A stretch of DNA of 35,326 bases, from positions 62,001 to 97,326 of the forward strand of contig JARGFH010000008.1 in the NCBI GenBank assembly GCA_029210695.1, written 5' to 3'. Source of the DNA: Acidimicrobiia bacterium. Lineage in GTDB: Bacteria > Actinomycetota > Acidimicrobiia > Spongiisociales > JAHEDJ01. Shown here one piece after another: positions 6,428-34,470 of this stretch. The notes under the pieces are model-generated. The model was not told the DNA's origin, ran no database searches, and saw nothing but the letters and a program-made list of their open reading frames with translations. Within the stretch, counting starts at the first letter, position 1. Each line of letters begins with the position of its first letter. The translations under genes and the position numbers were made by a program.

Positions 6428-7573
6428 TTACGGAGCGAACACGAACGGTGTCACGCCAACCTGGAAGGAATGGCGAACCTGGGCGTTGTCGAAGGTCGCA
6501 ACGCCGAAGTAATAGGTGGCACCCATGTCCGAGAACTGCACATCGAACTCGGAACCGGTCGTCATCGCACGTGCGATCTCGACCGTCCAGGTACCGTCGG
6601 CATACGTCCACTCTGCTGAGATGTCGCTGCGATCACCAGTGAACTCGGCCTTGTAGATACCGGGAACCCGGTCACCGGCCACGAACAGTGAGTCGTCGAA
6701 CTCCACCTTCTCGGAGTCGAGGATGTAGCCGGGCGAACCGTCCTTGGCGCCACCATCGGGTGACATGAAGGCAGGCAGGGTCTTGTCTTCGTTCTCGTTG
6801 TTGGTGTAGCCGCCGCCGTCACTCGGGTCGCCGTGGCGCCCGGCGCCGGGGGTGTCGGCCGAGTACCTGACCGAATCGACGTACTGGTCGTCGATCTGGT
6901 GGAGGTTACGAACCGACTTCCAGTGCCAGATGTCGCCGATTTGGCCTTCCGCCGCCGTGTACTTGTTGCCGTAAGGCTTGGCGTCCGAGTCCTCACCGGC
7001 ATGGCACATGACGAAGCAGCCCGATGATTCGAAGCCTTCGATGGCGGAATCCGTGTTCCAGATGATGGACATCTTGTCCTCGTACCAGAGGTTGTTGTCG
7101 CCGCCGTTGTCGTTCGGATCCTTGAGCTTGGCCCATGAACCGTCGTCCTGCTTCTCCCATGGCGAGCGCAGGTAGCTCTCGGTGGGATCATCCCAGCTCA
7201 CCAGGAAGTAAACGGTATCGCCCGAGTACACGGACTGGAGGCTGACATCGGCGCCGCCGCTGTTGGCTCCACCGGAGACGGCAACGGTCGTGACCGGGGC
7301 CCCTGCCCAGGCGCCGTCGTCGGCGACACCATCGAGGGTCGGAGCGTCCGTAGCAACCGAAACCAGCGTTCCCTCAGGAACCTCGAGCATCGCTTCCGTG
7401 GTCGTTGTGGCCACCATTGCCTCGGTAGTCGTTGTGGCCACCATCGCTTCGGTAGTTGTGGTCTCGGGCGCGCCGACCGCGCCTTCTGTGGTAGTGGTCT
7501 CATCTGAACTGCCGCAGGCAGCCAGGATGAGCGCCAGCATCATTGTGATGCCGGCGATACGTATGAAACGCAT
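6428..7573 (-). CDS. Ethylbenzene dehydrogenase-related (EB_dh/DOMON-like) haem-binding lipoprotein
   Basis: Lipobox LAAC, Thr-rich linker, APTLDG..D..W, YFLVSWDDPTES, YEDKMSIIW, GCFVMCH, DIWHWKSVR, WTVEIARAM, FGVATFDNAQVRH. Confidence 0.8.
   Translation of the reverse strand: MRFIRIAGITMMLALILAACGSSDETTTTEGAVGAPETTTTEAMVATTTTEAMVATTTTEAMLEVPEGTLVSVATDAPTLDGVADDGAWAGAPVTTVAVSGGANSGGADVSLQSVYSGDTVYFLVSWDDPTESYLRSPWEKQDDGSWAKLKDPNDNGGDNNLWYEDKMSIIWNTDSAIEGFESSGCFVMCHAGEDSDAKPYGNKYTAAEGQIGDIWHWKSVRNLHQIDDQYVDSVRYSADTPGAGRHGDPSDGGGYTNNENEDKTLPAFMSPDGGAKDGSPGYILDSEKVEFDDSLFVAGDRVPGIYKAEFTGDRSDISAEWTYADGTWTVEIARAMTTGSEFDVQFSDMGATYYFGVATFDNAQVRHSFQVGVTPFVFAP
7388..7465 (-). repeat. 27-bp coding tandem repeat (TTTTEAMVA, about 3 copies) in the lipoprotein linker
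   Basis: Period 27, seen at 7388, 7415 and 7442. Confidence 0.85.
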
Positions 7574-7601
7574 ATAAGTTCTCCCCGTTAAGGTCTCATC
7601 A

Positions 7602-7658
7602 GTATATCTATCTGATATACCACAAGCGAGATTCGGCAGACGTCACTACTTAAGTGAC
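7602..7658. promoter_or_regulatory. Two candidate operator palindromes upstream of the EB_dh-like gene
   Basis: GTATATC-N5-GATATAC (7602-7620) and GTCACT-N5-AGTGAC (7642-7658) in an AT-rich intergenic patch. Confidence 0.45.
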
Positions 7659-7779
7659 CTGTGCTGCCCACATAGGGTGGTGAAGAGGCCCGATGCGGCC
7701 TCGCCCAGACTTCCAGGCTCGCCAGATGCATTTACGGCCTGATTGACTGCCGGGCGAGATCGAGAGAGGTCCCTTGGAC

Positions 7780-9093
7780 CTACCCGGCCAGCAGAGTACC
7801 CAGGCGGGTGGCTTCGGTTCCTAGGCTGGAGACTCCAATCCCCCGGTAACCCCAGCCGGTGAGATGTAGACCGGGGTGATTGGCCACGGTCGCGTCGAGC
7901 TTGCGCATCCAATCGACGTGACCCACGTTGTACTGGGGGATTCCGGGGTCGTGCCTGACGACTCTCGACCAGGTCGGTTGCACCCGCGTCCCGATCACAC
8001 GACTCGTCTCGTCGATCATCATGGCAATGAGTTCTTCATCCGTCCGCGTCAGCACTTTCGGGTCGGCAGCACCTCCGTAGATCCCTTTGGCGAGATGGTG
8101 CAGCTCCGGTGCTCGCCCGGGGGCGTATTGCGACTCCATGAGGATTCCCAGGACGTGCACATCGGTGTCCGGGCCGATCAGTGCACCGAATCCTGCCGGA
8201 AGAGGAACGTCCGCTGCCCGGCCGCCGATCCCGACGACCGCCACGGGGGCGACCACTGCCTCTCCTAGCTGCGCAGCGATATCGGGCGGCGCCAGCTTGC
8301 AGGCATCGTGGGGAGCCAGGGCTAACACGATGTCTTTCGCCTGCAACTCACTTCCTGCTTCGACGATCCAGCCGTTCTCAATCCTTCTGACGGCACTCAC
8401 CGGCCGATTCGTCTGGAAGGACGCGCCGAGATAGGCGGCGAGGTCTTCGGCTACCCCTGTCATTCCGTTCGCCGGAACGTGGACCGAAGCTCGCGGCGTG
8501 TCTTTCTCGCGCTGCTTCATGCGGGCCATCATCCCCCGGACCATGCTGCCCGCCTCGTCTTCGAGCGCCACCATCCTCGGGAACGCGGCTCGCATGGACA
8601 GCGTGGATGGGTCACCGGCGAAAACGCCGTGCGCCATCAGGGTCGCACCGAGTCGGCCGAGTTCCGGACCGAAGCGACGGCTGAAGTAACTCTCGATCGA
8701 CTCGTCGGAGCTGGGGGGCGGTGTCTTGACCCATGGTTCGCAAATCGCCCGGAACTTCGCTCTCCACGAAACCAGTCCGGAGAAGGCGAGGGCCGGCGAT
8801 TCCGGAACCTGAAAGAGCTCGTCCCTCTCGTAGACGAATCGTGACTTCGCCTCCGGATTTGCAGCCAGCATCTCGATTCCCGCCGCTTCGAAGACGGGTC
8901 CGAGGTCGGAGTTGGGCCACAGGAGGGACCCGGCCGCGGGTTCGAGTAGAAAGCCGTCCTGCCGAACGCTGGACGCCACGCCGCCGGGGTGTCCCGACGC
9001 TTCAAGGACTAGTACTTCCATGTCGCGGCGCTTCAATTCCGCTCCGACGATCAGTCCACCCAAACCACCGCCGACCACGATCACGTCACTCAC
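7780..9093 (-). CDS. hemY: Protoporphyrinogen/coproporphyrinogen oxidase, HemY type (often annotated hemG)
   Basis: VIVVGGGLGGL FAD motif, LEAS..PGG, GVFAGDP..LSM..AFP, GIPQYNVGH, GYRGIGV. GTGA overlap with hemH. Confidence 0.9.
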   Translation of the reverse strand: MSDVIVVGGGLGGLIVGAELKRRDMEVLVLEASGHPGGVASSVRQDGFLLEPAAGSLLWPNSDLGPVFEAAGIEMLAANPEAKSRFVYERDELFQVPESPALAFSGLVSWRAKFRAICEPWVKTPPPSSDESIESYFSRRFGPELGRLGATLMAHGVFAGDPSTLSMRAAFPRMVALEDEAGSMVRGMMARMKQREKDTPRASVHVPANGMTGVAEDLAAYLGASFQTNRPVSAVRRIENGWIVEAGSELQAKDIVLALAPHDACKLAPPDIAAQLGEAVVAPVAVVGIGGRAADVPLPAGFGALIGPDTDVHVLGILMESQYAPGRAPELHHLAKGIYGGAADPKVLTRTDEELIAMMIDETSRVIGTRVQPTWSRVVRHDPGIPQYNVGHVDWMRKLDATVANHPGLHLTGWGYRGIGVSSLGTEATRLGTLLAG

Positions 9094-10058
9094 AGCGAAT
9101 CCTCCAAAACATCGGCCAGCATCGGCCCTACCTCGGGCCGGTCGTTCATCATTTCCGATCGGTAGTAGGTGCGGATTCCGACCTCTTCGGCCGCATCCCG
9201 GAAGAGCATGTCGACTTCGTAGAGCGTCTCGATGTGATCGGTGACAAATGAGATGGCCACCATGCCCACCGTGTCGAATCCGTCGCCGGCGAAGTCGGCG
9301 AGTACATGTTCGGTTCCCGGCCCGATCCATTTCACCGGCTTCGTGCGGGACTGGTAGCCGAGCCTGGCGTCGATCGAGTACGGGATCCGATCCACCACTG
9401 CCTTGACGGTGGCGGCCGTCTCTTCTGGATACGGGTCGCCTTTGGCGACCACGCTCCGGGGAAGGCCGTGCGCCGAAAACAGCACGGCAGCCCCGTCCCG
9501 CTGATCATGTGGCCGGGTCTCGAGCATCTCGGTCACCAGCTTCGCCTGGAAGTCGAGATACGACGGATGGTCGTACCAGGTGCGCACGACGTCGAGCGGG
9601 ACTGCAACGTTCAGTTCCTCGAGCACCCGCCTGAGTTCGTTTTCCGAAGATCCGGTGGTGGCCCTCGAGTATTGGGGGTAGAGCGGCAGGAGAATGATGC
9701 GGTCCACGTTGGCGCGGACGAGCGAACGTACTGCATCGTAGGTATCCGGGCGTGTATAGCGCATGGCTACAGCCACTTCAGCGTCGTGTCCCCGTTCGTT
9801 CAGCGTTGCCTGGAGCATCCGGGCTTGTGCCAGCGTGATCTCCATGATGGGGGATCCACCGCCGATCAGCCGGTAGTTTCGCCTGACGAACGGCCCACGC
9901 GCTTTCGCGACCAGCCACCCGAAGGCTTTGCTCACTGCCGGACCGCCGGGGATGGGCACGAGATCAGGGTCGGCGAAGATCGCACGAACGAACGGCTCGA
10001 CTTCCTTCTGGTCACGGGGGCCGCCTAGTTGGGCCAGGATGATTCCAGTCTTGGACAT
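9090..10058 (-). CDS. hemH: Ferrochelatase (protoporphyrin-type sequence)
   Basis: LGGP, IGGGSP, AMRY, LPLYPQYS..TTGSS, LFSAHGLP, GDPY, YQSR..PVKWIGP, FVTDHIETLYEVD. Confidence 0.95.
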   Translation of the reverse strand: MSKTGIILAQLGGPRDQKEVEPFVRAIFADPDLVPIPGGPAVSKAFGWLVAKARGPFVRRNYRLIGGGSPIMEITLAQARMLQATLNERGHDAEVAVAMRYTRPDTYDAVRSLVRANVDRIILLPLYPQYSRATTGSSENELRRVLEELNVAVPLDVVRTWYDHPSYLDFQAKLVTEMLETRPHDQRDGAAVLFSAHGLPRSVVAKGDPYPEETAATVKAVVDRIPYSIDARLGYQSRTKPVKWIGPGTEHVLADFAGDGFDTVGMVAISFVTDHIETLYEVDMLFRDAAEEVGIRTYYRSEMMNDRPEVGPMLADVLEDSL

Positions 10059-10065
10059 GCTGCTC

Positions 10066-11451
10066 CTAGACAGTTCGGGAGAAGACGGGCTTGTCCCGTT
10101 TCACATTCTTGAGGTACACATCGAAAGCCATGGCGACGTTGCGAATGAACACCCGGCCGAGCTCGGTGGCGGTGATGTGGTCGTCGGCGACGGTAGCCAT
10201 CCCCTCCTCGACGGATCCGCCGGGCCCGGTGATGACCGCCAGCTCCTTAGCGAAGTACTCGTGGAAATCGATGGAGAACAGCTCCTCCACGTCGGGAAAC
10301 GAGAGATGCGAGTTGCACATCAGCTCGGTGATGACGTGGCGGCGGATCCGGTCGTCGTCGGATAGGGTAACTCCTCGCTCGACCGGCAGTTCGCCGGCTT
10401 CGATCGCTTGGTAATACGAGTTCAGCCGCTTGTGGTTCTGGGCGTATGCGCCGGCGACGTCGCTGATACCGGAGGTGCCGAGGGCAACCATTTCGGTTCC
10501 CCGCTTGGTCGTATACCCCATGAAGTTGCGCGAAAGCGAACCGTTGCCCATCGCGATGGAGAGTTCGTCGTCTGGTAGGGCGAAGTGATCCATGCCGATG
10601 GCGCGATAGCCGCCTCCGACGAGGGTTTCCGACACCTGGGCGAGCAGCGCGAACTTCGCGTCCCGATCGGGAAGGGTTGCCTTGTCGATCCTCTTCTGAT
10701 TGGGCTTGACCCAGGGCACGTAGGCGAATGAATAGACCGCCAGGCGGTCGGGGCGCATCTCGAGCGTCTTCTCCAGTGTGTCGCCCATCGTGTCGAGAGT
10801 CTGGCCGGGGAGCCCGTAGATGAGGTCGATGTTGATGGAATCGAATCCCAACCGCCTGGCTTCGTCGTAGAGGGTTCTTGTTTCTTCCCAGGTTTGGTTT
10901 CGCCCGATCATCTCCTGGACCGTTGGATCCAGATCCTGGACCCCCAGGGAGAGCCGGTTGAACCCCAGTTCCCTGAGCATGAGCAGGTGTTCGGGAGTCG
11001 TTACGCGGGGGTCGACTTCGAGGGCAACCTCGGCATCCGGCGCGATGGTGAAGTGCAACAAGAGCGTCTTGTGGAGGGTGCTGAGGTCATGGGCCGAGTA
11101 GTAGGTTGGGGTTCCTCCCCCCCAGTGGTACTGCACGACCGAGCGTCGCTCGCCGAGATGGTCGGCGACGATCGCCGCTTCTTCGATGAGGCGTTGGAGG
11201 TACACGTTGGAGACCGAGTCGCGGCGGGCGATCACTACGTGACATCCGCAGAACGAACAGCGGGCGTCGCAAAAGGGGAGATGCACATACAACGAGAGGG
11301 GCCCCCCTGCGTCGCGTGCGGCGTCCCGCAAACGACCCGCGTAGGCGTCCGGCCCGAATGACTCCGTGAACTCCACCGCGGTCGGATACGAGGTGTAGCG
11401 CGGGCCGGGTCGATCGTAGCGAGCCAGGAGGTCCGGCGTCAGCGAGATCAC
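10066..11451 (-). CDS. hemN: Oxygen-independent coproporphyrinogen III dehydrogenase (radical SAM)
   Basis: GPRYTSYPTA, YVHLPFCDARCSFCGC, GGGTPT, DLIYGLPGQT, IGMDHFA, RNFMGYTT, FSRTV. GTGA overlap with hemE. Confidence 0.95.
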   Translation of the reverse strand: MISLTPDLLARYDRPGPRYTSYPTAVEFTESFGPDAYAGRLRDAARDAGGPLSLYVHLPFCDARCSFCGCHVVIARRDSVSNVYLQRLIEEAAIVADHLGERRSVVQYHWGGGTPTYYSAHDLSTLHKTLLLHFTIAPDAEVALEVDPRVTTPEHLLMLRELGFNRLSLGVQDLDPTVQEMIGRNQTWEETRTLYDEARRLGFDSINIDLIYGLPGQTLDTMGDTLEKTLEMRPDRLAVYSFAYVPWVKPNQKRIDKATLPDRDAKFALLAQVSETLVGGGYRAIGMDHFALPDDELSIAMGNGSLSRNFMGYTTKRGTEMVALGTSGISDVAGAYAQNHKRLNSYYQAIEAGELPVERGVTLSDDDRIRRHVITELMCNSHLSFPDVEELFSIDFHEYFAKELAVITGPGGSVEEGMATVADDHITATELGRVFIRNVAMAFDVYLKNVKRDKPVFSRTV

Positions 11452-12443
11452 CGGTCCTCCCCTCGGACGGACGCCACCATGGCGGCCACGTTGTCGACTG
11501 GGGTGTCGCGGTGGATGCCGTGACCGAGATTGAAAATGTGGCCGGGCCGCCCACCGGCTTCGTCGAGTACACCGGCGACGGCCTTTCGGACCCGTTCCGG
11601 GTCGGTCAACAGAGTCGCCGGATCGAGGTTTCCCTGGATGGGGTGAGAAACGCCAACTCGCTGCCACGCCTCCGCCAGAGGCAGCCGCCAGTCGACGCCG
11701 TAGGCAGTGGCCCCGACCCCGTCGAAGTGGGGGAGGAGATGAGGGCCGTGGGGGGCGAAATAGATCGTGGGCACCGTCTGGTGCTCGAGGGCGGCCCTTG
11801 CAGGCGGAATGGCCAGGTCGACGAAATCGTTGGCCGAGAGGATGCCTGCCCACGAGTCGAACAACTGCACAACGTCGGCACCTGCACTCACCTGCATCTG
11901 CAGGTAGGCCGACATTGCCCGGCCGACCTTGAGGAGCGCTTCGGTGGCAACCGTCGGTTGGCGCTGGAGCGTGCTGCGGAGGGCCATGAATTCCTTGCTC
12001 CCTCCCCCCTCGAGCAGATAGGCGAGCAGCGTGGTGGGAGCCCCGGCGAACCCGATCAGGGCGACCCCGGCAGGTAGGTCCGAGCGTACGTTGGCGATGG
12101 CCTCGGCCACGAAGTCGACCTTGTGAGGCTCGAACTCTGGAAGCCGCGCGATTTGTTCGATGGTCATCGGTGCGAGTTGCGGTCCCGGGTTGAAATCGAC
12201 TGTCACGCCCATGGCTTCGAGCGGTGTCATGATGTCCGAGAAGATGATTGCGGCGTCGAGTTCGAATCGTCTGATGGGTTGCAGGGTGATCTCGGCTGCC
12301 ACGGCGGGATCGTGCACCGCCTCCTGGAACGAATGCCCGGCGCGTAACTCCATGTATTCGGGCAGGTAGCGGCCTGCCTGTCGCATGAACCAGACGGGCG
12401 GCCGGTCGAGTGGCTCTCGGCGAAGAGCTTGCAGCAGTCTCAC
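11448..12443 (-). CDS. hemE: Uroporphyrinogen decarboxylase
   Basis: PVWFMRQAGRYLPEY, DAAIIFSDI, LIGFAGAP, QLFDSW, QGNLDP, HIFNLGHG. Confidence 0.95.
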   Translation of the reverse strand: MRLLQALRREPLDRPPVWFMRQAGRYLPEYMELRAGHSFQEAVHDPAVAAEITLQPIRRFELDAAIIFSDIMTPLEAMGVTVDFNPGPQLAPMTIEQIARLPEFEPHKVDFVAEAIANVRSDLPAGVALIGFAGAPTTLLAYLLEGGGSKEFMALRSTLQRQPTVATEALLKVGRAMSAYLQMQVSAGADVVQLFDSWAGILSANDFVDLAIPPARAALEHQTVPTIYFAPHGPHLLPHFDGVGATAYGVDWRLPLAEAWQRVGVSHPIQGNLDPATLLTDPERVRKAVAGVLDEAGGRPGHIFNLGHGIHRDTPVDNVAAMVASVRGEDR

Positions 12444-13708
12444 GATGCAGCTTCGATGATGGCCTCTTCGAGCGCAGTGAGCGCGATGTCGAGAGTGCCG
12501 TCGAGGTGTGACTCCATCAGGAACCAGGTTTCGAAAGGCGACGGCGGCAGCAACACTCCCCGTCGCAGTGCGCCGTGGAAGAAGCGGTTGAAGAGCTCGG
12601 TATCGAGACCCGCCACGTCGGTCCAGGTGGTCGCCCGGTCGACCCCCAGGAAGACGCCTACCATGCCGCCTACCGCGTGAACGACTCCGGGCAAACCCGC
12701 TTCGGCGAGGGCTTTCCCGAGGCGGTGTTCTATCAACCGCCCGGCCTCCTCGAATCGATCGTAGAGATCGTCGTTGCTCCGGATCCAGCGCAGCGTTGCC
12801 AACCCGGCCGCCGTAGAAAGGGGATTGCCGGCGAGCGTACCGGCCTGGTAGACGGGCCCGTTGGGAGCGATCATGCTCATCAGGTCGGCCCGGCCTCCGT
12901 AGACGGCGGCTGGCGTGGCGCCGGCAACGACCTTGCCCATCGTCGTCAGGTCGGGCGAGACGCCGTAGCGACCTTGGGCGGATTCGCGGCCCACCCTGAA
13001 TCCGGTCATGACTTCGTCGAAGATCAGCAAGGCGCCGTGAGATCCGCACAGGTCGCGCAAACCGGAGAGGAACCCATCGGCCGGGGCGATACAGCCCATG
13101 TTTCCTGCCACGGGTTCGACGATCACCGCGGCGATGTCGCCGGTGGCGAGATGCGCCTCTACCGAGTCGAGGTCGTTGAAGTCCGCCACCCTCGTGTCGA
13201 TTACCGTCCGCTCGGGGACACCGGGGCTCGACGGGGTGCCGAAGGTGGCGAGGCCGCTGCCGGCCTGCACGAGGAACGGGTCTGCATGGCCGTGGTAGCA
13301 GCCGGCGAACTTCACGATTCCGGCCCTGCCGGTGGCAGCCCGGGCGAGGCGGATCGCCGAGGCAGTTGCTTCCGTCCCGCTGTTGACCATGCGTACGACC
13401 TCGATCGAGGGAACCATCTCGACGATCAACTCGGCGAACTCGACCTCTGCTGTGGTGGGCAGGCCGAACGATGAGCCGTTTTCCGCGGCCTCTGTGATGG
13501 CTGCAATGACCGATGGGTGCGCATGCCCGTTGATCAATGCCCCCCACGAGGCCACGAAGTCGATGAGTTCCCGGCCGTCGGTGGTGGTGACCCTCGCTCC
13601 CGACCCTGAAAGAACGAACGGTGGGTCTCCTCCCACTGCTTTGAAGGCCCTGACGGGCGAGTTCACTCCTCCGGGGATGACGGCACGAGCGCGTTCGAAC
13701 CAGCTCAT
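12440..13708 (-). CDS. hemL: Glutamate-1-semialdehyde 2,1-aminomutase
   Basis: IPGGVNSPVRAF, VNSGTEAT, GCYHGH, EPVAGNMG, FDEVMTGFR, YQAGTLAGNP. Confidence 0.96.
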   Translation of the reverse strand: MSWFERARAVIPGGVNSPVRAFKAVGGDPPFVLSGSGARVTTTDGRELIDFVASWGALINGHAHPSVIAAITEAAENGSSFGLPTTAEVEFAELIVEMVPSIEVVRMVNSGTEATASAIRLARAATGRAGIVKFAGCYHGHADPFLVQAGSGLATFGTPSSPGVPERTVIDTRVADFNDLDSVEAHLATGDIAAVIVEPVAGNMGCIAPADGFLSGLRDLCGSHGALLIFDEVMTGFRVGRESAQGRYGVSPDLTTMGKVVAGATPAAVYGGRADLMSMIAPNGPVYQAGTLAGNPLSTAAGLATLRWIRSNDDLYDRFEEAGRLIEHRLGKALAEAGLPGVVHAVGGMVGVFLGVDRATTWTDVAGLDTELFNRFFHGALRRGVLLPPSPFETWFLMESHLDGTLDIALTALEEAIIEAAS

Positions 13709-13709
13709 C

Positions 13710-21404: not shown

Positions 21405-21425
21405 CGAGGGGCGCGAAGCCCAGCT

Positions 21426-25564: not shown

Positions 25565-25589
25565 CCTTTGGCCCGGGTGTCGAGCGGGG

Positions 25590-26780: not shown

Positions 26781-26788
26781 GGTTGCTC

Positions 26789-27445
26789 CTATGGTGTCGT
26801 GGCAGCGGCACCGAGCCTGGCGAGCGCATCGCGGATGTCGGTGTTTGTGGGGTTGAAGGCTGACGCTTGTTCGTATGCGGCGATTGCACTATCGATCTCG
26901 CCCTGCGCCTCCAGCGCTCTACCGAGCCCGAAGTGCGCGTCTGAGACGAAACGATTGTCCGCGATGGCCTCTTGGAAAGCCTCCTGGGCTTCCGTGGGCC
27001 GATCCATCTCGAGCAGCAGGTCGCCGAGAGCGATGAACGGCAGCGCCTTGTTTTCTCGCGGAGCGTATTCGGCCGACCGGGTGAGCATCTCGGTTGCCCT
27101 GTTTTGATCTTCCCTCCTCACCATGACAGCGAGGTCCAGTAGTGCCGACCACTGGTTGGGGTCGATTTCCAGTGCGCGCTCGAGTGTTTGCCGAGCTTCT
27201 TCGGCTTCGCCGTTTCGGAGCAGTGCATTTCCGAGGCCGGCGAGAGCCCAGGCGGCACCAGGGTTTTTATCAACGGTGTCGCGCCAGGATGTAATCTCGA
27301 GGGCGGTCATCGTCTCCGGTACGGGATCGGGGCGGAGCTGTAGAAAGACGATCGCGCCTCCCAGACCGGTCACGACGATCATCAGGACAACCACGATGGT
27401 CAGAAGACCAGTCGGGATCGGCTGCGCTCTCTTACTTCCAGTCAT
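26789..27445 (-). CDS. Tetratricopeptide repeat protein with N-terminal TM anchor
   Basis: LAGLGNALLRNGEAEEA..LERALEIDP, ALGDLL, AHFGLGRALEAQGEIDSAIAAYEQA..FNP. Confidence 0.9.
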   Translation of the reverse strand: MTGSKRAQPIPTGLLTIVVVLMIVVTGLGGAIVFLQLRPDPVPETMTALEITSWRDTVDKNPGAAWALAGLGNALLRNGEAEEARQTLERALEIDPNQWSALLDLAVMVRREDQNRATEMLTRSAEYAPRENKALPFIALGDLLLEMDRPTEAQEAFQEAIADNRFVSDAHFGLGRALEAQGEIDSAIAAYEQASAFNPTNTDIRDALARLGAAATTP

Positions 27446-28091
27446 CTGCCAATACCTCTACTTCGACTTCGTCCCGTCGGGTTTCCAGCCAGTCTACGAA
27501 TGCGGCTTCTTGCATGTCTCCAGTTAGTTCATCCATCAAGGAGTTCCTCACCTCGATGAAGGGGAGCGTGCCACCAGAGTCTTTGAACTGGTCGGGGTTC
27601 GCGTTGTAGTAGGCCTCGGCATTTTCCTCGGTTGCCTCGATGCCTTCAGTGATCGCCCGGTACACCCGTGACGAGGACTCCTGGAGGTACAAACGGCGGC
27701 GTGCCTCCTGCTCGTCGATTCCGTTTTGAGCCAGCCAGGCTTCCCACTCGTCGCCGCCGCCGATGGCAGCGCGTAGATCGTCTAGTGCTTGGTCAACATC
27801 GCCATCGGAGACGGCTACGCCTCGCTCTTCGGCTTCAATCTCTACGATGATGTCGTCGGTGAGCGTCCGAAGCACAACGACCCGCCAATCCTCGCCAAGC
27901 GCTACCTCGATATCGCCCCCGTGTAATTGCGCGATGCCTGCAATGCGAGAATCCGCCACCGATTCGTAGACAGGACGGCCATCCACTGTGGCGATGATCG
28001 GCCCGGCGGGTTCAGACGATTCACATGCCGGGGCAGTGATAGCCAAGACCGCGAGGAAAAGAGCACTCCCGGTGTTGCGGCGCAGCTTCAT
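27432..28091 (-). CDS. SurA N-terminal/PrsA-like foldase lipoprotein (no clear parvulin domain)
   Basis: Signal peptide ending APAC, IIATVDG, VLRTLTDD..VEIEAEERGVAVSDGDVDQ, EAYYNANPDQF, WLETRR. ATGA overlap with the upstream gene. Confidence 0.8.
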   Translation of the reverse strand: MKLRRNTGSALFLAVLAITAPACESSEPAGPIIATVDGRPVYESVADSRIAGIAQLHGGDIEVALGEDWRVVVLRTLTDDIIVEIEAEERGVAVSDGDVDQALDDLRAAIGGGDEWEAWLAQNGIDEQEARRRLYLQESSSRVYRAITEGIEATEENAEAYYNANPDQFKDSGGTLPFIEVRNSLMDELTGDMQEAAFVDWLETRRDEVEVEVLADDWK

Positions 28092-28924
28092 CCTGATGTA
28101 CCTCCGATGGGTAGTGGTCGTGAGCGGGGTCGAACTCCGGCGTGACAAGCGTCCGAGCAATAGGTCGCTGTGTGGCAGGTGCCACAGTTGTTGGCACCTC
28201 CTTCATCTACATCGGCGCCGTGGGTTGCGTTCCAGCCGTCCGGGTGGTTGATGTCATGACAGTTCGCGCAGGTTGAGGCGCTATGGCAAGCGGTGCAGGA
28301 GTCGCGATCGGTCCCGTCAAACGACCCCGGTAAAATGAGGCTGTGATCCTGCCCGGGATGGAACGAATCGGGAAGGTGACAGGTGCCGCAGTCGACGTAG
28401 CCACCACGAGGTATGGCGAAGTCGTAGTAGTGGGGCAATGACCCGGGCACATGGCAGTACTGGCACTGGCTCTCCGACGCAACTTGTGTATGGCATTCGG
28501 CGCACACTCGCTCTGGGGGTGCCAGCGGGTTCGGGTGTGTCAGATCTGTGTGACAGGCTTCGCAAGTGAGACCGGCTTCCGCATGGGTGGGATGGTTGAA
28601 GTACAAATCGCTGGACCGAACGTTCGTCCAGTAGTTCTCGTGGCAGTCGGCGCACTCAGAGAACTCCGATGGCACCGCGGCTTCTGCTGTCGGCTGTTGC
28701 CAGACTGGCAGAACCCAGCGATCGATGGACTGGTCCGCTTCATCGACGAACCGCGAGAGGAGGCCGGGCCGTTCGTCGCTGCCTGCCCACAGCACGACCA
28801 CGTCTTCAGCAAATCGTCCAAGGCCGTCCCTCGCATCGGGTGAGACGAGCACCGCTCCGACAATTGCACCTTCGATAATGAAGAGGCTGATGACAGACGC
28901 GACGATCAGGGTGAATCTGTTCAC
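28088..28924 (-). CDS. Membrane-anchored multihaem cytochrome c (8 CxxCH + 1 CxxxCH)
   Basis: N-terminal TM. CADCH, CEACH, CAECH, CQYCH, CGTCH, CTACH, CANCH, CGTCH, CSDACH. GTGA overlap. Confidence 0.88.
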   Translation of the reverse strand: MNRFTLIVASVISLFIIEGAIVGAVLVSPDARDGLGRFAEDVVVLWAGSDERPGLLSRFVDEADQSIDRWVLPVWQQPTAEAAVPSEFSECADCHENYWTNVRSSDLYFNHPTHAEAGLTCEACHTDLTHPNPLAPPERVCAECHTQVASESQCQYCHVPGSLPHYYDFAIPRGGYVDCGTCHLPDSFHPGQDHSLILPGSFDGTDRDSCTACHSASTCANCHDINHPDGWNATHGADVDEGGANNCGTCHTATYCSDACHAGVRPRSRPLPIGGTSG

Positions 28925-29949
28925 GGCACTATGTCCCAGTCGTAGAGCCGTTGCTCGGTGTGCACCGAGTGTTTGACATGGCAGACACTGCAGTCGCGGA
29001 TGGAATGGCACGTGGCGCAAGCCGACGCTTGAGGCGTTTCCACCGACCGGAAGTGCAGCCCAACCCAGTTTTCCGGATGCGGTATTTCGGTCCCGTGGCA
29101 GCCTGCGCAGAAGGAGGGCGCATGACACGACGTACAGCTGGCGCCGCGATCTCCGATGCTCTCCGGCCCGTGCATCGTGGTCCAGTCTCCCGGGTGCGGA
29201 TAGGTCGCTCCGACGTGACACGCCGAGCAGAAGTCTGAGGCGTGGCAATCGACACACGCGGTCGGTTCGGCGACGGCGTCGCGGCCGTGGGTGAACGAGT
29301 AGTCGGCTGGATGCGGATCCCCTGGACGGGAAACGGCTGCGGTCGTACCCGGATGAGCGACCTGGCCGTGGCAAGCGTCGCAGGCAGCATCTGGTCCCGG
29401 ATGCCCGGCGGCCACCAGTTCAGAACTCGCCGCTATCTCGATGTGACACTCACTGCATGCCCCCGGGGCGAGAACCCCCTGTGCGGTGGGTAGCCGAGTG
29501 ACTTGCTGGGCGGCTTCCCTGATCAGAGTCGGTACGTAGACCAGGCCGCCGAGGAGACCGTGGGTCGTACCGTGACATGCGAGGCAGGCGACATCAGCAT
29601 GAATGGATTGGCCATGACTCGTTGCGGCCGACTCGGCAGTGTGGCACGAACCACAGAACGCCCGTGAGGAACCTGGATAGGTGGTTGTGAAGCCGATCGC
29701 AAGCGCGAATAGAGCTGCCACTCCAAGCACCCAGAGAAGCCATCTGCGCGGTCCGTCGGATGCTCCCTCGAGCTCGCGCGGTAGCTTCCTTCGATCGGGA
29801 AAGTCGGTCGACGGCGGAGTCTGGCTGTTTCCATCCGGTGGCTCGGGAGGGTCTGGAGGCGATGGATCGCTCTGCGACGGCGGTGGCGGTTCGACACCGT
29901 TGCCGCGGAATGCCTCCGGAGGCCCCTCGCCGGGCGGCTCGAAGGTCAT
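28921..29949 (-). CDS. Membrane-anchored 10-haem cytochrome c with NapC/NirT-like N-terminal region
   Basis: Pro-rich N-terminus, TM, FCGSCH..SIHADVACLACH, CSECH, CDACH, then CVDCH, CSACH, CTSCH, CAGCH, CATCH, CSVCH. ATGA overlap. Confidence 0.88.
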   Translation of the reverse strand: MTFEPPGEGPPEAFRGNGVEPPPPSQSDPSPPDPPEPPDGNSQTPPSTDFPDRRKLPRELEGASDGPRRWLLWVLGVAALFALAIGFTTTYPGSSRAFCGSCHTAESAATSHGQSIHADVACLACHGTTHGLLGGLVYVPTLIREAAQQVTRLPTAQGVLAPGACSECHIEIAASSELVAAGHPGPDAACDACHGQVAHPGTTAAVSRPGDPHPADYSFTHGRDAVAEPTACVDCHASDFCSACHVGATYPHPGDWTTMHGPESIGDRGASCTSCHAPSFCAGCHGTEIPHPENWVGLHFRSVETPQASACATCHSIRDCSVCHVKHSVHTEQRLYDWDIVP

Positions 29950-30857
29950 GGTCGCTCCCCTGGTTCTTCGTTCCCAGAGGTGTCGCCATCGAGGGTCGAA
30001 TCTGCCTCGCCTGTGGTTTCGGCTGGTGGCGCGAGGCGTCGAAGGTCGGCTGAGTAATCCTCTACACCCCGTGTGTGGCAAGAAACGCAGGTGTTGGGAT
30101 CGTGGCACTCGAAACAGCCGGCACCACCGTCGGTTCGCACAACCTCAGGATGAGCCTCTCTCCAGACCGGAACGTCGGGGTTCTGCGGGTGGTGGCAGGC
30201 GTCGCACTCATCACGAGTGGTCAGATCTGGTCCGCGCTCGTGACAGCTCATACACGATTCGATGCTCGAGTCGAACGTAGCCCGCGCATGCGGATATCCC
30301 GCCCATCCGTCGTCGTGCGGTATGTCGACACCATGGCACGCCGTACAGAAATCTTGTCGCGAGTGGCAAGTCTCGCACAGCGACTGGCTGATCAGGGCGC
30401 CAGAGCCGTGAACGTCCCGCCACTCTGCAGTGAAGTGGCTCTGGGGCGGAGGCACAGTGGCATTGTCGTGGCACCGGAGGCACGGCAGCTCGAGAGCCGG
30501 CCCGGCGTCTAGGTGGCACGAAAAGCAATCCTCCATGTTCGGTGTCAGCGGGGGAGTGCGATCGTGCGTATCGAGACCATGGCAATTGCCGCAACCGACG
30601 TCACCAGAAGTCGAGAAGTGCTCTTCGTGTCGAAATCCGATGAGTTGCACCAGTCCGGCTTGCAGGGAGTGCTCGATGTCATCGTGGCATTCGAGGCACG
30701 CGTCGAAGTCGGAATCCGCCGCCACGGCGGCGGCTGCAATCGGGATCAGCGGTGGGTCGTTTGCCGGATCGTCCGTCAACTGCCAGGCGACCAACGCAAC
30801 AACGGTGAGGAGTCCGCCGAGCGCAAAGGGCCGTGGTCGTCGTCTCATCGCGACCAC
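29946..30857 (-). CDS. 10-haem cytochrome c (c3/c7-like N-terminal part plus dihaem repeats)
   Basis: N-terminal hydrophobic segment. CLECH, CGNCH, CFSCH, CLRCH, CETCH, CTACH, CMSCH, CDACH, CFECH, CVSCH. Start may be ATG 30848. Confidence 0.88.
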   Translation of the reverse strand: MVAMRRRPRPFALGGLLTVVALVAWQLTDDPANDPPLIPIAAAAVAADSDFDACLECHDDIEHSLQAGLVQLIGFRHEEHFSTSGDVGCGNCHGLDTHDRTPPLTPNMEDCFSCHLDAGPALELPCLRCHDNATVPPPQSHFTAEWRDVHGSGALISQSLCETCHSRQDFCTACHGVDIPHDDGWAGYPHARATFDSSIESCMSCHERGPDLTTRDECDACHHPQNPDVPVWREAHPEVVRTDGGAGCFECHDPNTCVSCHTRGVEDYSADLRRLAPPAETTGEADSTLDGDTSGNEEPGERP

Positions 30858-30909
30858 CCGGCGAGATGGGGTGCGCTGCAGGCTGCGATGGTCCCCAAGT
30901 AATCCACGC

Positions 30910-31335
30910 CTACTCCTCTTGGACGAACGGGCGGAGAGGGATGTGGCCGCCGTTTAGTAATGTGTCGTAGGTCACCGAGAAGACCCGCCTCAGCTCGTCG
31001 AAGGCGTCCTCGCAGACGGGTCGGATCGGACAGTCGGCTGCGGTGTCACAGGTTTCGGGATGCTCGCAGCAGATGTTGACGAAGAGTGGGCCTTGCACGG
31101 CCTCTATGACGTTGAGCAGGCTGATCTCGCTTGGATCGCGCGCAAGATCGATCCCGCCGTTGACTCCTCGTCTGGTGGTGAGTATGCCCGCTTTCGACAC
31201 GGCCGCCACGATGCGCCCGAGGATCGATGGGGGTATCCCGGCCCGTTCCGCGACTGCTCCGGTGGAGGTGTGCCCGGTGCGGGCTACGTCGAGAACACAG
31301 CGCACGGCATAGTCGACCTCGCGGGTGATCAACAC
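30910..31335 (-). CDS. Rrf2 family transcriptional regulator with Fe-S ligand Cys motif
   Basis: ITREVDYAVR, RRGVNGG..LARDPSEISLLNVIEAVQG, NICCEHPETCDTAADC. GAGAGGGG RBS before GTG 31335. Confidence 0.92.
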   Translation of the reverse strand: MLITREVDYAVRCVLDVARTGHTSTGAVAERAGIPPSILGRIVAAVSKAGILTTRRGVNGGIDLARDPSEISLLNVIEAVQGPLFVNICCEHPETCDTAADCPIRPVCEDAFDELRRVFSVTYDTLLNGGHIPLRPFVQEE

Positions 31336-31519
31336 CGTGGGCCCCCTCTCGACCACTCACGGCATTCACAAACCATTGCGGACCCTCGCCTCTCTCCCAT
31401 GTGGCCCAACCCGCGGCTCCTGACAGCCATCCCGGGTCCAACCGCGACGGTACTCGCAGTCAACTGGCGTCCTGTAGGGCCCAATGGCATTCGCGGGGGG
31501 ATGGAGGTCGGGTCTGTCA

Positions 31520-33022
31520 TCAGAACCGCGTCGATCCGTGATTGTGGCACTGTGTGCAGAGCCTGTTGGGTGTGTGGTGGTCGCCGTGGCAGCTGCCACA
31601 GAAGTCAGAGAGGATTGCCTGCTGTTCTGGGGTGTCCTCATCGATGAATCCGGTAACCCGTGGGCCGACGGTGCCGGCGGGCACACCTGCCTGTCCGGGG
31701 CTGATCACATACTCGCGCAACAGGTATGAGTTCGAGGAGCCATGCGGGTCGTGGCAGGCGGTGCAGGCGAGTTGGGCGCCCGCACCGTGGTCCGACCGTT
31801 CGTTGGTGAAATAGTACGTGGCGTCGAACGTGTCGTGGGGTCCGCCGCTCCCGTTCAGCACGGCTGAGTCGTTGGTGAGCCGCACGTCGTAGGGGACCCA
31901 GGTGCCGGCGTTGATTGGAGCGGTCGTGGTCGGGTCCTGGTGACACGCAACGCAAAACTGCGATATGGTGCCCCGGGTGAACGTGCCGTCCGTCCAGGTG
32001 ATGGCGACGTCGCCTCGGGTGTCTCCCGGATTCGAGATCTTGCTCCCAGTTGCTGAGTACTCACGGTCAACCCGATGAGCGTTGTGACATGACGCGCACT
32101 CGACCTCACGGCTACCAACGTCTTGTTCATGGTCGCCGATGGGGTGGTGGTAGATGCGAATCAAGCCGTCGGCGTCGGTGGGGTCGTAGTCGTTGGCTGC
32201 CGCCGTGAAGGCGTACTCGAGGTCGGTGGTGTCGAAGGGAAGATCGGGGTTGGTGTTGGGCGTTGCCGTGTTGTGGCAGGTGAAGCAGGTGGCCTCTTGT
32301 TGGGAGAGGCCCGGGTAGGCCGAGCCATGGCCGTTGTGGCAGTTCACGCACTGGATGCCCGATCCCGAGGGAGGATCGCCCCCGAGCATTTGGTGAACGC
32401 CTCCGTCAAACGCAGTCTGATCGCCAAACGGAGCGGGGAATGGAGAGGCGGCACCGTGGCACCGGTAGCAGTAGGTGTTGCCAATCGGAGTGCCGACCGG
32501 CGAGTAGACCCAGCCACCGGAACCATCGTTGATGCGCAGGAGTTTCGTGAACTCGGATCGAGCCTGATGTGGCGTGTGGCAGTCGCCACACGTGACCGAG
32601 TATCCGTCGAGCGCGTGGGGGAGGGGATGATACGAAGGTTGGGTGCTCTCCCCCAGATTCGACTCGCCGAACTCTGCGCGGATGTCGGACGTCGATCCAC
32701 TCCCGTCGTGGCATCGGTAGCAGGCTTCCTTTTCGGTGGCGGTTGCCAGCAATGTGGTTCCGGCGGCATTGTGGACGTCGTGGCAGGAGAGACACCCGTT
32801 CGTGGCGGCGCTGAGGAGACCGTGAGGGTCCGGGAACTCAACTGCCTGAGCCACCGCGAGGATCGCAAAGGGCATTGAAGTTGCTGCCGTGTCCGCGCGT
32901 TGGTCCGGTCCGGCCGCAGCCGGCAAGAATGTAAGGGCACCGAACACAACGCTCAGCGTGGTCGCAAGAGCGATCCGCCGCCATTGTGCGCCCGGTACTC
33001 GAAACCTGACGAGTTTGGTCAA
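31520..33022 (-). CDS. Secreted 11-haem cytochrome c with paired (doubled) CXXCH domains
   Basis: Signal peptide. CLSCH, CYRCH, CGDCH, CYRCH, CVNCH, CFTCH, CASCH, CVACH, CTACH, CGSCH, CTQCH, mostly alternating CxxCHxxH/CxxCH. GGAGG precedes the TTG. Confidence 0.9.
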   Translation of the reverse strand: MTKLVRFRVPGAQWRRIALATTLSVVFGALTFLPAAAGPDQRADTAATSMPFAILAVAQAVEFPDPHGLLSAATNGCLSCHDVHNAAGTTLLATATEKEACYRCHDGSGSTSDIRAEFGESNLGESTQPSYHPLPHALDGYSVTCGDCHTPHQARSEFTKLLRINDGSGGWVYSPVGTPIGNTYCYRCHGAASPFPAPFGDQTAFDGGVHQMLGGDPPSGSGIQCVNCHNGHGSAYPGLSQQEATCFTCHNTATPNTNPDLPFDTTDLEYAFTAAANDYDPTDADGLIRIYHHPIGDHEQDVGSREVECASCHNAHRVDREYSATGSKISNPGDTRGDVAITWTDGTFTRGTISQFCVACHQDPTTTAPINAGTWVPYDVRLTNDSAVLNGSGGPHDTFDATYYFTNERSDHGAGAQLACTACHDPHGSSNSYLLREYVISPGQAGVPAGTVGPRVTGFIDEDTPEQQAILSDFCGSCHGDHHTPNRLCTQCHNHGSTRF

Positions 33023-33189
33023 ATATCCTCCGCCACCCTAAGAGTAAATCATACCTATTTCGGGCGATTTCGGTAGTGCGATGCGCCCCGTTGATGGGGC
33101 CGAATGGCCCTGTCGCGATAGGGCCATTCCTCAACTTGACGCTGTGTCGGGAAACACATAGAGTGATGAATGAGCCAAGTGCTATCGGC

Positions 33190-33214
33190 ATATTTGACCT
33201 AAAAGGTCTGATTA
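33190..33214. promoter_or_regulatory. Candidate Rrf2 (IscR type-1-like) operator in the divergent promoter region
   Basis: ATATTTGACCTAAAAGGTCTGATTA: 25 bp, GACCT-AAA-AGGTC core, GAC-N7-GTC spacing. Confidence 0.5.
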
Positions 33215-33339
33215 CGTCGAGGTTAGGGATTACGCATCGCCAGGCTTCTTGGCGGCATCGCGATGCGGGTTGCGAGAAACAGAAGGGGAGCATGCAGCTC
33301 CCATGAGTCGGGTTCCGAACCCGACAGGGAGGAGGGCGA

Positions 33340-34470
33340 ATGAGACGGCGATTCAGAACCGTCGGACTCGTTGTGTGTGTAATGGCTGCGATGTTGGTCC
33401 CGGTAACGGGGGCGATGGCGCAGGATGCGAGCAATGTTGGTGATCCAGCTGCCGGGGCAGTTGATCCGCATGGTGGGTACTCGTCGACTACGCAGTTCTG
33501 TCTGCAATGTCATGACGTCCATAATGCAAACGGATCGTACGGTCTCATGGGGGCAGTCAGTGTGACAGCCGTCTGTCAGACTTGCCATGCGTTGCCGAGG
33601 TTGGGTGGAGGCGGAGTAACGGTTCCGAGCCACAATCCAACGCCAAATCTCAACCCCGACGGGTCGGTCAAGACACTCGGTACGACGTCGTCGTTCAGTG
33701 CCTACGACCTAACGGGTGGGGTGGGCGAAGAGCACACGATCGGTGCTACAGACATTGACGGCAACCCGATGACGCAGTCTGCCTACCAATACCGTGGACG
33801 GTTCCTCGGAACCGATTCTGCCGTTGCGGCGGGTGCGGGCACTGCAGGTGAGTACGCCGGCGGTCTTTACTGCGCCAGTTGCCACACGGCACACGGCGAG
33901 TACGGCCAGGTTGTGAATGATCCGGTCGAACCGACGGCAACCAGTCCTGGCGACGAGGGTGTGCACTTCTATCAGGGGAATACGCAACTCTGGTTGGACT
34001 ACTCCGGCGACGCGACAAACCCGAATGCCGACTGGTTCGCATGTGAAGCCGCGGCCGATGTAATGATTGGCACCGGCGTCGGCACCGCCTGTGCGAAGCG
34101 ATTCGACGCGCTGACGATCAACGATGAAGAGGGCAAGCCCTCTTCGCTGTTCGGCTACAAGCTGCTGTCGTCATATCCGAATCACACATGGGGGAGCAAG
34201 TCGAGCTTCAAGTTCGACAACCACGCGCATGATGTATCGGTGTGGTGCTCAAAGTGCCATGATTCGAAGTCGATCGATACTGCGGGCATTCACAATCACC
34301 CGACGGGCTGCCTGGCTTGCCACGGCAACCCTTCGGATGTCGACTCGCGAGGTCGATTCACTGTTGCGACGGCCTTCGACTTCCCGCATACGTCGCCAAA
34401 TGCGGCCTTCCTGCGGGCGTTGCCTGACGCACTCTGCATCAGCTGCCACACGAGGGGAAGCCTGCCGTAG
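33340..34470 (+). CDS. Secreted hexahaem cytochrome c, OmcS/CwcA-like motif architecture
   Basis: Sec signal ending AMA. PHGGY..CLQCHDVH, CQTCH, LYCASCHTAHGEY, WCSKCH..HP, CLACH..FPH, LCISCH at the C-terminus. GGAGG RBS. Confidence 0.85.
   Translation: MRRRFRTVGLVVCVMAAMLVPVTGAMAQDASNVGDPAAGAVDPHGGYSSTTQFCLQCHDVHNANGSYGLMGAVSVTAVCQTCHALPRLGGGGVTVPSHNPTPNLNPDGSVKTLGTTSSFSAYDLTGGVGEEHTIGATDIDGNPMTQSAYQYRGRFLGTDSAVAAGAGTAGEYAGGLYCASCHTAHGEYGQVVNDPVEPTATSPGDEGVHFYQGNTQLWLDYSGDATNPNADWFACEAAADVMIGTGVGTACAKRFDALTINDEEGKPSSLFGYKLLSSYPNHTWGSKSSFKFDNHAHDVSVWCSKCHDSKSIDTAGIHNHPTGCLACHGNPSDVDSRGRFTVATAFDFPHTSPNAAFLRALPDALCISCHTRGSLP

Follow-up and report, generated by a model that had tools for sequence, protein, structure and literature searches.

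A clustered multihaem cytochrome locus in an uncultured Acidimicrobiia bacterium as a candidate porin-free electron conduit

How could an actinobacterium that appears to have a single membrane pass respiratory electrons from its quinone pool to an acceptor outside that membrane? The question is raised by a 35,326-nt stretch of an Acidimicrobiia genome (GenBank assembly GCA_029210695.1, here G000; contig JARGFH010000008.1, here C170, positions 62,001 to 97,326 of the forward strand), hereafter the window, in which eight genes for c-type cytochromes lie close together. Multihaem chains are already known in Gram-positive bacteria, from Thermincola, Carboxydothermus and Parvivirga, and Gram-positive multihaem electron export has been worked out biochemically for few Firmicutes only. 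We hold with moderate confidence that the locus would encode a porin-free conduit through which electrons leave the menaquinol pool and travel outward past the cytoplasmic membrane; the acceptor there might be Fe(III) or Mn(IV) minerals, humic substances or a partner cell. The genes divide into two conserved modules, A with the putative quinol oxidases and B with tethered and secreted cytochromes.

A six-frame script run over the window, whose sequence contains no N, found haem-binding motifs in the eight genes in the numbers 7+2+9+9+10+10+11+6 = 64 (62 CxxCH and two CxxxCH), identical in count and place to what an earlier note, drawn from the DNA letters, had listed. Across the 3.91-Mb genome just 23 open reading frames (ORFs; stop-to-stop, at least 60 aa) contain two or more CxxCH motifs, and 8 of the 23 fall inside 15.3 kb, so the clustering is not due to chance. 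The open frames of all eight cytochrome genes and of the accessory genes are intact, with true starts set from start codons and orthologues, and orthologues at 38-60% identity retain the haem counts. None of the cytochromes scored over the cut-off of a named NCBIfam model. The other genes that the note had pointed out were likewise recovered: Pfam and NCBIfam searches returned SurA_N/peptidylprolyl isomerase (PPIase)-like, tetratricopeptide repeat (TPR), NHL and Rrf2 matches, and hydropathy profiles indicated that membrane-anchored and secreted multihaem proteins are both present. The claim of two distinct quinol-oxidising modules also stood, one being ImcH-type and the other a CbcL-type protein split in two.

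The 7-haem gene of module A (19267-20862, plus strand; six CxxCH and one CxxxCH) encodes a candidate inner-membrane quinol oxidase. Its product has hydrophobic helices at residues 42-60, 79-97 and 128-146 (Kyte-Doolittle heuristic), a CX3CH motif (CGETCH) at residue 159 followed by six CX2CH motifs, and a NapC/NirT N-terminal region (PF03264, E=2e-8, residues 129-214). The published hallmarks of ImcH are three transmembrane helices, a CX3CH next to the last helix, six CX2CH and a NapC/NirT-like region (PMC6295460; this and most other papers are cited from the accessible part of their text). The protein has all of these, and its role as an oxidase is predicted. Among the loci of 80 relatives, the CX3CH motif opens the haem series in all 75 complete ORFs, and the layout of three helices, one CX3CH and six CX2CH is identical in 49 of them; relatives at 35-41% identity occur in Acidobacteriota and other groups.

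On the opposite strand, two overlapping genes make up the second putative oxidase. One (21426-22976, minus strand; two CxxCH) encodes a cytochrome b of the FdnI/HydC type (Ni_hydr_CYTB, PF01292, E=1.9e-12) with a C-terminal extension of two monohaem c domains (PSCyt1, E=4.2e-13, two domains in Pfam); NCBIfam formate dehydrogenase gamma models match it below their cut-off. Its histidines 43, 85, 99, 193, 208, 213 and 235 are invariant in 13 sequences, fused forms included. The other (22927-24036, minus strand; nine CxxCH) encodes a 9-haem c-type cytochrome with a signal peptide-like N-terminus and a C-terminal membrane helix (hydrophobic segment 326-344). In the CbcL/MtrH/MtoC family, an N-terminal multihaem c domain with 3-23 CX2CH motifs is joined to a HydC/FdnI-like cytochrome b of about six helices (PMC6295460). 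The two genes here are predicted to be such a CbcL-type protein in two pieces: PF01292 lies in the same chain in 105 of the 120 best longer homologues of the 9-haem protein, the best fused homologue (53% identity, 779 aa) also contains PF07635, and the fused form, found here as two genes, is the commoner one among homologues. A 344-aa ORF that overlaps the cytochrome b gene on the opposite strand (20826-21860, plus strand) was rejected as a gene, having no family match and a sister-contig match over 23% of its length only.

Of 40 relatives in the same order, 13, belonging to 6 of 12 families, gave a match to the ImcH query, and in all 13 loci examined from 11 of these genomes the three genes of module A are neighbours; outside the genus they run in the order 9-haem, cytochrome b, ImcH on one strand. 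The layout of ImcH in Geobacter sulfurreducens is reproduced, and by description the 9-haem protein and the FdnI/HydC-type cytochrome b correspond to CbcL (PMC6295460). The differences from Geobacter are these: the CbcL-type protein is split into two genes and has two extra monohaem c domains, the two oxidase modules are always adjacent, and no outer membrane or porin-cytochrome complex lies downstream. A 2018 survey counted one ImcH homologue and no CbcL homologue in Actinobacteria, in the accessible part of its text (PMC6295460); the ImcH homologues listed in Table S3 of that paper may affect how novel the ImcH member described here is.

Module B lies on the minus strand in the order 11-haem, Rrf2, 10-haem, 10-haem, 9-haem, PrsA-like, TPR and NHL, with a 6-haem gene divergent from the 11-haem gene. 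At its centre are three tandem genes for membrane-anchored cytochromes, each having a single hydrophobic helix in its N-terminal part and one haem per 30-34 residues: MHC10a (29946-30848; ten CxxCH, c7-like units), MHC10b (28921-29949; ten CxxCH, a Pro-rich cytoplasmic N-terminus and a helix at 71-89) and the His-poor MHC9 (28088-28924; eight CxxCH and one CxxxCH, N-terminal helix). They are followed by genes for a PrsA/SurA-like lipoprotein, a putative extracytoplasmic foldase (27432-28091; weak SurA_N_3 and Rotamase_2 matches), a membrane-anchored TPR protein (26789-27445; many TPR families, including TPR_CcmH_CycH at E=6.7e-11; helix 17-35) and a membrane-anchored NHL-repeat beta-propeller (25590-26780; Pfam NHL, E=8.6e-22; helix 40-58), the last gene of this conserved six-gene core. 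The start codon of the PrsA-like gene, ATG at 28091, overlaps the MHC9 stop, and the N-terminus of the protein ends in a lipobox-like ...APAC; the NCBIfam peptidylprolyl isomerase model matches it below cut-off (E=7.7e-9). MHC10a, MHC10b, MHC9 and the PrsA-like gene are chained by 4-nt overlaps (ATGA or GTGA), and 4-nt overlaps or tiny gaps continue throughout the core; the three tandem cytochrome ORFs appear to overlap further because the open frames extend upstream of the true starts.

The ligand complement differs among the tethered cytochromes. MHC10b has ten motif histidines and ten further invariant ones, and MHC10a has nine invariant non-motif histidines and an invariant Met105 for ten haems. 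MHC9 has six invariant non-motif histidines against nine haems, and non-motif histidines are fewer than haems in 12 of its 14 best representatives in a library of 1.84 billion proteins; this shortage suggests either open haem sites or ligands borrowed from partners. Single-sequence searches of the PDB with MHC10a, the 11-haem protein MHC11 and a 717-aa decahaem protein encoded on another contig (see below) returned nothing meaningful, and complex prediction for the three tethered cytochromes gave no answer (score 0.00). A family profile of MHC10a did match 6lod_A and 8k9e_A (E ~1e-9), 3ov0_A (2.4e-7) and 6f0k_A, over a range of 6e-10 to 2.5e-5; we take 6lod_A, 8k9e_A and 6f0k_A to be ActA of alternative complex III and 3ov0_A to be GSU1996. 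MHC10a resembles the 6lod_A-type subunits in carrying a haem chain behind an N-terminal anchor. It differs from the c7-type PDB chains in that the matches are partial, covering single c7-like units, that it has ten haems, and that no catalytic subunits of alternative complex III are encoded nearby.

Two secreted cytochromes complete the module. MHC11 (31520-33022, minus strand; 11 CxxCH; Paired_CXXCH_1, E=3.9e-27) and MHC6 (33340-34470, plus strand; six CxxCH) both have a signal peptide-like N-terminus, which in MHC6 ends in AMA-Q. Full-length relatives of MHC11 occur in eight loci (L229-L236; seven with Actinomycetota-type labels and one labelled "Bacterium HR12"), and an MHC6 gene adjoins in all eight, on the opposite strand in seven. 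In the ESM Atlas, MHC11 found generic Paired_CXXCH/c7 clusters alone. With 36 proteins at E<=1e-5 the MHC6 family is small, and its profile matches weakly, mostly around the haem motifs, to 7tfs_A (7e-6), carrying the tool label "Cytochrome c" and presumably the OmcE filament, and to OmcS, 6ef8_A (1e-3). The six motif and six further conserved histidines of MHC6 are compatible with intra-chain or inter-chain ligation. Two MHC6 relatives, P0013 and P0020, bear the source label "Gammaproteobacteria bacterium"; this is a probable mislabel because the core-carrying genomes have six WhiB genes and no Omp85.

Between the 11-haem gene and the tethered cytochromes lies the gene for an Rrf2-family regulator (30910-31356, minus strand; Pfam Rrf2, E=1.8e-26), whose C96, C103 and C109 (spacing CX6CX5C) are invariant in seven orthologues and which stands directly upstream of the three cytochromes in all core-bearing relatives. 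The divergent intergenic region of MHC11 and MHC6 (33023-33339) contains a 28-nt near-perfect palindrome (33102-33129). An AT-rich inverted repeat (33000-33026 and 33190-33216) was also seen between the two genes. At a guess, the palindrome and the repeat are candidate Rrf2 operators.

Does the host have an outer membrane that such a chain would need to cross? The assembly (3.91 Mb, 181 contigs, 97.85% complete, 0.38% contaminated) contains seven WhiB genes, found by a search whose control matched Corynebacterium alone. No Omp85 was detected in the genome with a search whose control matched all seven diderms, Thermotoga and Deinococcus included, and LpxC was likewise missing from this 97.85% complete assembly; within the window, Pfam assigned none of the ORFs to a porin-like family. 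A monoderm envelope is therefore the best reading for this actinobacterial genome, which is in line with what the earlier note had proposed, namely a probable monoderm actinobacterium without a beta-barrel porin gene. The five core-carrying relatives likewise have six WhiB genes each and Omp85 in none, and WhiB shares a contig with cytochrome modules in G011 and G040. One cytochrome of the locus is 63% identical to a contig labelled "uncultured Acidimicrobiia bacterium" and another 60% identical to an "Acidimicrobiia bacterium" protein; HemB, 51-62% identical to sequences from many phyla, was uninformative as a taxonomic probe. Placement of the genome in Actinomycetota is firm, and in the class Acidimicrobiia probable. 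A chimeric contig was considered and rejected, since three sister genomes share the order hem operon, pheA, tadA, ImcH, cytochrome b, 9-haem. Surveys based on Gram-negative markers have found hardly any genes for such electron export in Actinobacteria; one counted 3 of 647 metagenome-assembled genomes (MAGs), and its authors suspected a search bias (10.1101/2022.03.26.485925).

The gene order of module B is shared by the sister genome G001 and by four genomes of another family (f6). The order of the six-gene core is kept further afield, at 32-54% identity, in five contigs, L204-L207, labelled "uncultured Actinomycetes bacterium" (32-49%), and L230, labelled Actinomycetota. What precedes or follows the core varies. 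ImcH stands before it in L203, and a NapC/NirT-type 6-haem gene with Rieske/b6 genes in L204 and L205; in family f6, Rieske/b6 genes come just after NHL. Two Armatimonadota loci (L210, L217) have the 9-haem and cytochrome b front end, with core cytochromes fused into 28- and 32-haem proteins. L306, labelled Eubacteriales, and the unidentified L293 show the series Rrf2, Rieske, b6, MHC10a-like and NHL, with a TPR gene in L306. The same core behind different quinol oxidases is the pattern expected if the core is a downstream conduit.

The core is rare in its class. A profile of MHC10b found five of 401 genomes of the class at E<=1e-20 (its own and the four of family f6), and 45 of 401 evenly sampled genomes of the phylum at E<=1e-15, its own included; four of the latter scored E<1e-90, and the others were weaker, multi-copy and in small genomes. 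These 45 genomes suggest that the trait may be commoner in deep-branching actinobacteria than has been appreciated. Among 1.84 billion representatives the MHC9 profile found 39 at E<=1e-30, and on public contigs the MHC10a profile found 19 loci, 15 with labels of Actinomycetota lineages, two labelled Armatimonadota and two unlabelled. Coriobacteriia-labelled contigs held only weak relatives of the core cytochromes (25-30% identity). Contigs L201 and L229 seem to be the same as C70 of G001, and L096 the same as C85 of G004; each was counted once. The term "Geobacter-style" used in the earlier note thus suits the quinol oxidases only; the remainder is an Actinomycetota-centred module.

The locus had also been called self-contained, and this did not hold. 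In G001 the cluster runs unbroken into two more multihaem genes, a ccm operon and b6-type complexes, which in G000 form the end of another contig, C94, and in G000 an insertion sequence (IS) interrupts the cluster. The last 20 kb of C94 are collinear, at 85-92% identity, with the G001 stretch directly upstream of the 6-haem gene. This region (C94:41400-61365, locus L221) encodes two sets of b6-type cytochrome b, a Rieske protein, the maturation proteins CcmA, B, C, E, F and H, one TPR and one thioredoxin-like protein, a 5-haem protein and a Thr-linker 10-haem lipoprotein of 717 aa, whose gene lies 380 bases from the contig end. One of the b6-type complexes has a 795-aa fusion of subunit IV with eight monohaem c domains. 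In Actinobacteria, cytochromes c are usually matured by System II. Here Ccm System I is complete and ResB was not found in the genome, making System I its maturation route; the cytochrome c maturation genes that the earlier note had proposed to locate elsewhere in the genome are present.

The 717-aa decahaem lipoprotein (L221:17435-19588) is an internal duplication of a five-haem unit of ~315 aa. A search of 400 other genomes of the phylum did not detect it (E<=1e-20). The only distant relatives seen (34-36% identity) came from contigs with the labels Planctomycetota and Polyangiales, and this hints that the gene was acquired from outside.

Beside module A lies a haem-biosynthesis operon (7780-17452, minus strand) with HemA, HemC, HemD, HemB, HemL, HemE, HemN, ferrochelatase and a HemY-type oxidase (Pfam); HemN (TIGR00538, 538.9 bits) and protoporphyrinogen oxidase (TIGR00562, 188 bits) both scored over cut-off. 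A full haem operon is thus adjacent, as had been noted, but the notion that the cytochromes have their own haem supply is overstated: HemA, B, C, D, E, H and Y each occur once only in the genome, so the operon is a housekeeping one. Between it and the cytochromes stand pheA and tadA, encoded on the other strand, and its position beside module A is seen within the genus only. Haem genes do recur near related modules elsewhere, which lends the notion some substance. A full-length HemA lies between Rrf2 and the cytochromes in L204 and L206, with a partial ORF in L207 and a tblastn match only in L205; in L207 the core is followed by HemY and HemH, which in L234 lie next to MHC11, as HemE does in L231 and L232. 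We read this as haem synthesis repeatedly co-located with very haem-hungry operons, not as a private pathway.

The cluster differs between sister genomes. An IS lies between the NHL and 9-haem genes (24166-25589, minus strand, right boundary approximate; ISL3 transposase gene 24179-25459, DDE_Tnp_ISL3, E=2e-46); at this site the sister genome has 86 nt where G000 has ~1.4-1.5 kb, and homology resumes at 24165. Metagenome contigs of two runs join 24165 to 25954. The right end of the window is the end of contig C170, where a fragment of a Mutator-family transposase (34904-35254, plus strand; weak Transposase_mut, E=0.0059) probably caused the assembly to break off. Module B of G000 is flanked by the ISL3 element and by this fragment. 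G002 and G004 lack module B, their genes running hem operon, pheA, tadA, ImcH, cytochrome b, 9-haem, 10-haem lipoprotein, 5-haem, ccm, so that the module represents an 11-kb insertion or deletion inside one genus. A comparison of G000 with G001 (window positions 25590-30848 and 33340-34470 set against L183) shows flanks that are 88-96% identical and MHC10a at 80%, whereas MHC10b, MHC9, the PPIase-like, TPR and NHL proteins and MHC6 are 39-54% identical. Sediment-metagenome contigs from three runs of one study gave the same picture: the flanks, on a single contig, are ~90% alike, the middle is unlike, and the IS is absent. Alike flanks around a divergent middle show that the cassette was exchanged by recombination. 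The three sediment DNA runs were rejected as a source of this organism, with 5-6% of sampled words found, and their contigs belong to a relative; no RNA run was listed as containing the sequence.

How does the locus compare with systems already described? The pathway ImdcA - PdcA - CwcA - OcwA of Thermincola potens and T. ferriacetica is similar in being a porin-free multihaem chain of a Gram-positive cell, with a membrane decahaem, further decahaems, an OmcS-like hexahaem proposed to lie in the wall and a surface reductase (PMC7911101). By description, the tethered 10-, 10- and 9-haem proteins and the secreted hexahaem with weak OmcS/7tfs similarity parallel this arrangement. The locus differs from Thermincola in its ImcH- and CbcL-type oxidases, its three tethered cytochromes with PrsA-like, TPR and NHL partners, its 11-haem partner and its host phylum, Actinomycetota. 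Carboxydothermus ferrireducens (PMC7829351) and Parvivirga hydrogeniphila of the Coriobacteriia, an actinobacterial Fe(III) reducer with 17 multihaems that respires ferrihydrite (PMC9686372), are monoderms with clustered membrane-bound and surface multihaems, some beside biogenesis genes; neither the six-gene core nor the block of ImcH and split CbcL is described for them in the accessible parts of these papers. MtrCAB/Pcc-type conduits are defined by a beta-barrel and an outer membrane, and neither was found here (Pfam; Omp85 and LpxC searches).

A compositional likeness comes from the uet cluster of Ca. Tenderia electrophaga (uetABCDEFGHIJ with ccsAB and nrfG), which encodes a peptidylprolyl isomerase, two NHL proteins, three c7-type cytochromes, an undecahaem, a TPR protein and maturation genes (10.1101/2022.05.06.490989). 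A PPIase, an NHL protein, a TPR protein, an undecahaem and c7-type cytochromes all lie here in 25590-33022, with maturation genes nearby in G001. The uet cluster differs in having a beta-barrel UetC, a cupredoxin UetF, System II and a diderm gammaproteobacterial host; no UetC-type beta-barrel or UetF-type cupredoxin domain was found in the window (Pfam). Multihaem clusters in Acidimicrobiia are not described in the accessible parts of PMC12175321, PMC11279179 and PMC13264449. No description of the block of ImcH and split CbcL, of a six-gene core with exchangeable front ends or of a His-poor 9-haem subunit was found in the literature, supplementary tables not being covered.

From the observed gene content, motif counts, predicted topology, tight operon, gene order kept across lineages and lack of outer-membrane markers, we infer each electron-transfer step, the complex, the direction and the acceptor as follows. 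Quinol would be oxidised at the outer face of the membrane by the ImcH-type 7-haem protein or by the split CbcL-type pair of dihaem cytochrome b and 9-haem cytochrome c. Electrons would then pass to the three co-translated tethered cytochromes with 10+10+9 = 29 haems, which probably form one assembly whose folding or anchoring would need the PrsA-like, TPR and NHL proteins. The secreted MHC11 and MHC6, probably together with the 717-aa 10-haem lipoprotein, would carry the electrons through or beyond the wall, and Rrf2, with three putative cluster-binding cysteines, would set expression.

Several findings weigh against an outward conduit of this kind. The uet cluster, the closest compositional analogue, has been proposed for electron uptake; the core is rare in its class, with 5 of 401 sampled genomes, its own included; each of the three tandem cytochromes is tethered to the membrane; neither MHC11 nor MHC6 showed a sortase or wall-binding motif; and AlphaFold 2 models were too poor to use for both MHC6 (32 relatives, mean pLDDT confidence 47.5) and the C94 decahaem lipoprotein (6 sequences, pLDDT 43.4). 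The IS between the NHL and 9-haem genes may disturb expression in this genome. Rieske/b6 genes beside related cores would also fit an ordinary membrane-level chain or reverse flow, and with three haem-copper oxidase (COX1) matches in the genome, the cytochromes could feed oxygen reduction. The same hardware might run inward, drawing on Fe(II) outside the cell, on a cathode-like mineral or on a partner cell and feeding the quinone pool, b6-type complexes and terminal oxidases. The proposed function of uet (10.1101/2022.05.06.490989) favours this direction, as does the occurrence of CbcL/MtoC/MtrH homologues in Fe(II) oxidisers (PMC6295460); Rieske/b6 genes adjoin the core in relatives, and C94 holds two such sets in a genome with the three COX1 matches. 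We nevertheless think inward flow unlikely. ImcH homologues had been found in Fe(III) reducers only, according to the accessible text of PMC6295460, and the sole lead from MHC11 to UetJ is a 30% partial match in a Thiohalomonadales-labelled MAG. The RuBisCO large subunit was not found in the genome, which makes lithoautotrophy by the Calvin-Benson-Bassham cycle unlikely, other carbon-fixation pathways not having been checked.

A shorter route is conceivable, in which the 29-haem set would stay at the membrane surface, never crossing the wall, and link the quinol oxidases or b6 complexes to a soluble acceptor, open haems of MHC9 being catalytic (e.g., towards nitrogen or sulfur oxyanions). The N-terminal anchor kept by all three core cytochromes suits it, as does the coupling of the core to Rieske/b6 in L204, L205 and family f6, and MHC9 itself supplies no distal ligand to at least one haem, or to three judging by conserved columns. 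We consider such a branch quite unlikely, given that the secreted 11-/6-haem pair and the long Thr-linker decahaem lipoprotein are hard to explain without a distant target; Pfam and NCBIfam matched no enzyme family, no search having been aimed at CxxCK or other catalytic motifs. It seems highly improbable that the cluster is decaying or silent in G000 through disruption by IS elements. The ISL3 insertion, the transposase fragment at the contig end and the variable presence of the core in the genus, where it was not found in G002 or G004, would suggest this, but the cytochrome and accessory frames are intact, the haem counts are conserved, and the IS lies between genes, not inside one.

Within the outward conduit that we prefer, a bolder and decidedly doubtful version may be imagined, in which the six genes of the core would encode a dedicated machine found across the actinobacterial phylum. 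Its parts would be a 29-haem hetero-oligomeric stalk in which partner ligands complete MHC9, with its own PrsA-like, TPR and NHL assembly factors, a polymerising OmcS/OmcE-like MHC6 passing through the peptidoglycan and MHC11 as cap or adaptor; quinol-oxidising front ends would be interchangeable, and strongly diverged cassette alleles, exchanged between members of a genus by recombination, would tune the machine to different acceptors or partners. The value of the locus is limited by a function deduced from sequence in an uncultured organism. Within that limit, the conserved core offers a marker for electroactive Actinomycetota in sediment and soil metagenomes, and the three tethered cytochromes with the PrsA-like, TPR and NHL proteins, Rrf2 and the 11-/6-haem pair form a defined protein set to express and solve.

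The rest of the window contains a few further genes. Within the haem operon, an oxygen-independent HemN occurs together with the HemY-type oxidase and ferrochelatase (7780-11853, minus strand). Directly after the operon lies a gene for a lipoprotein with a Thr-rich linker and an EB_dh (haem b-binding) domain (6428-7573, minus strand; EB_dh, E=1.4e-41; LAAC lipobox, TTTTE repeats), which shares its lipobox and Thr-linker design with the 10-haem lipoprotein of C94. It could be a surface haem protein and may be linked to the cluster; its single CxxxCH was treated as chance. The left edge (3-353, plus strand) carries the C-terminal part of an RskA-type anti-sigma-K factor, another gene typical of actinobacteria (Pfam). 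A 592-aa ORF (2687-4465, minus strand) has no Pfam or NCBIfam match and no hydrophobic segment. Its nearest 30 ESM Atlas clusters, commonest in Bacteroidota and Ignavibacteriota, are all unnamed 'hypothetical protein' entries of ~580-606 aa (score 0.98-0.99), and it looks like a member of a widespread uncharacterised family.

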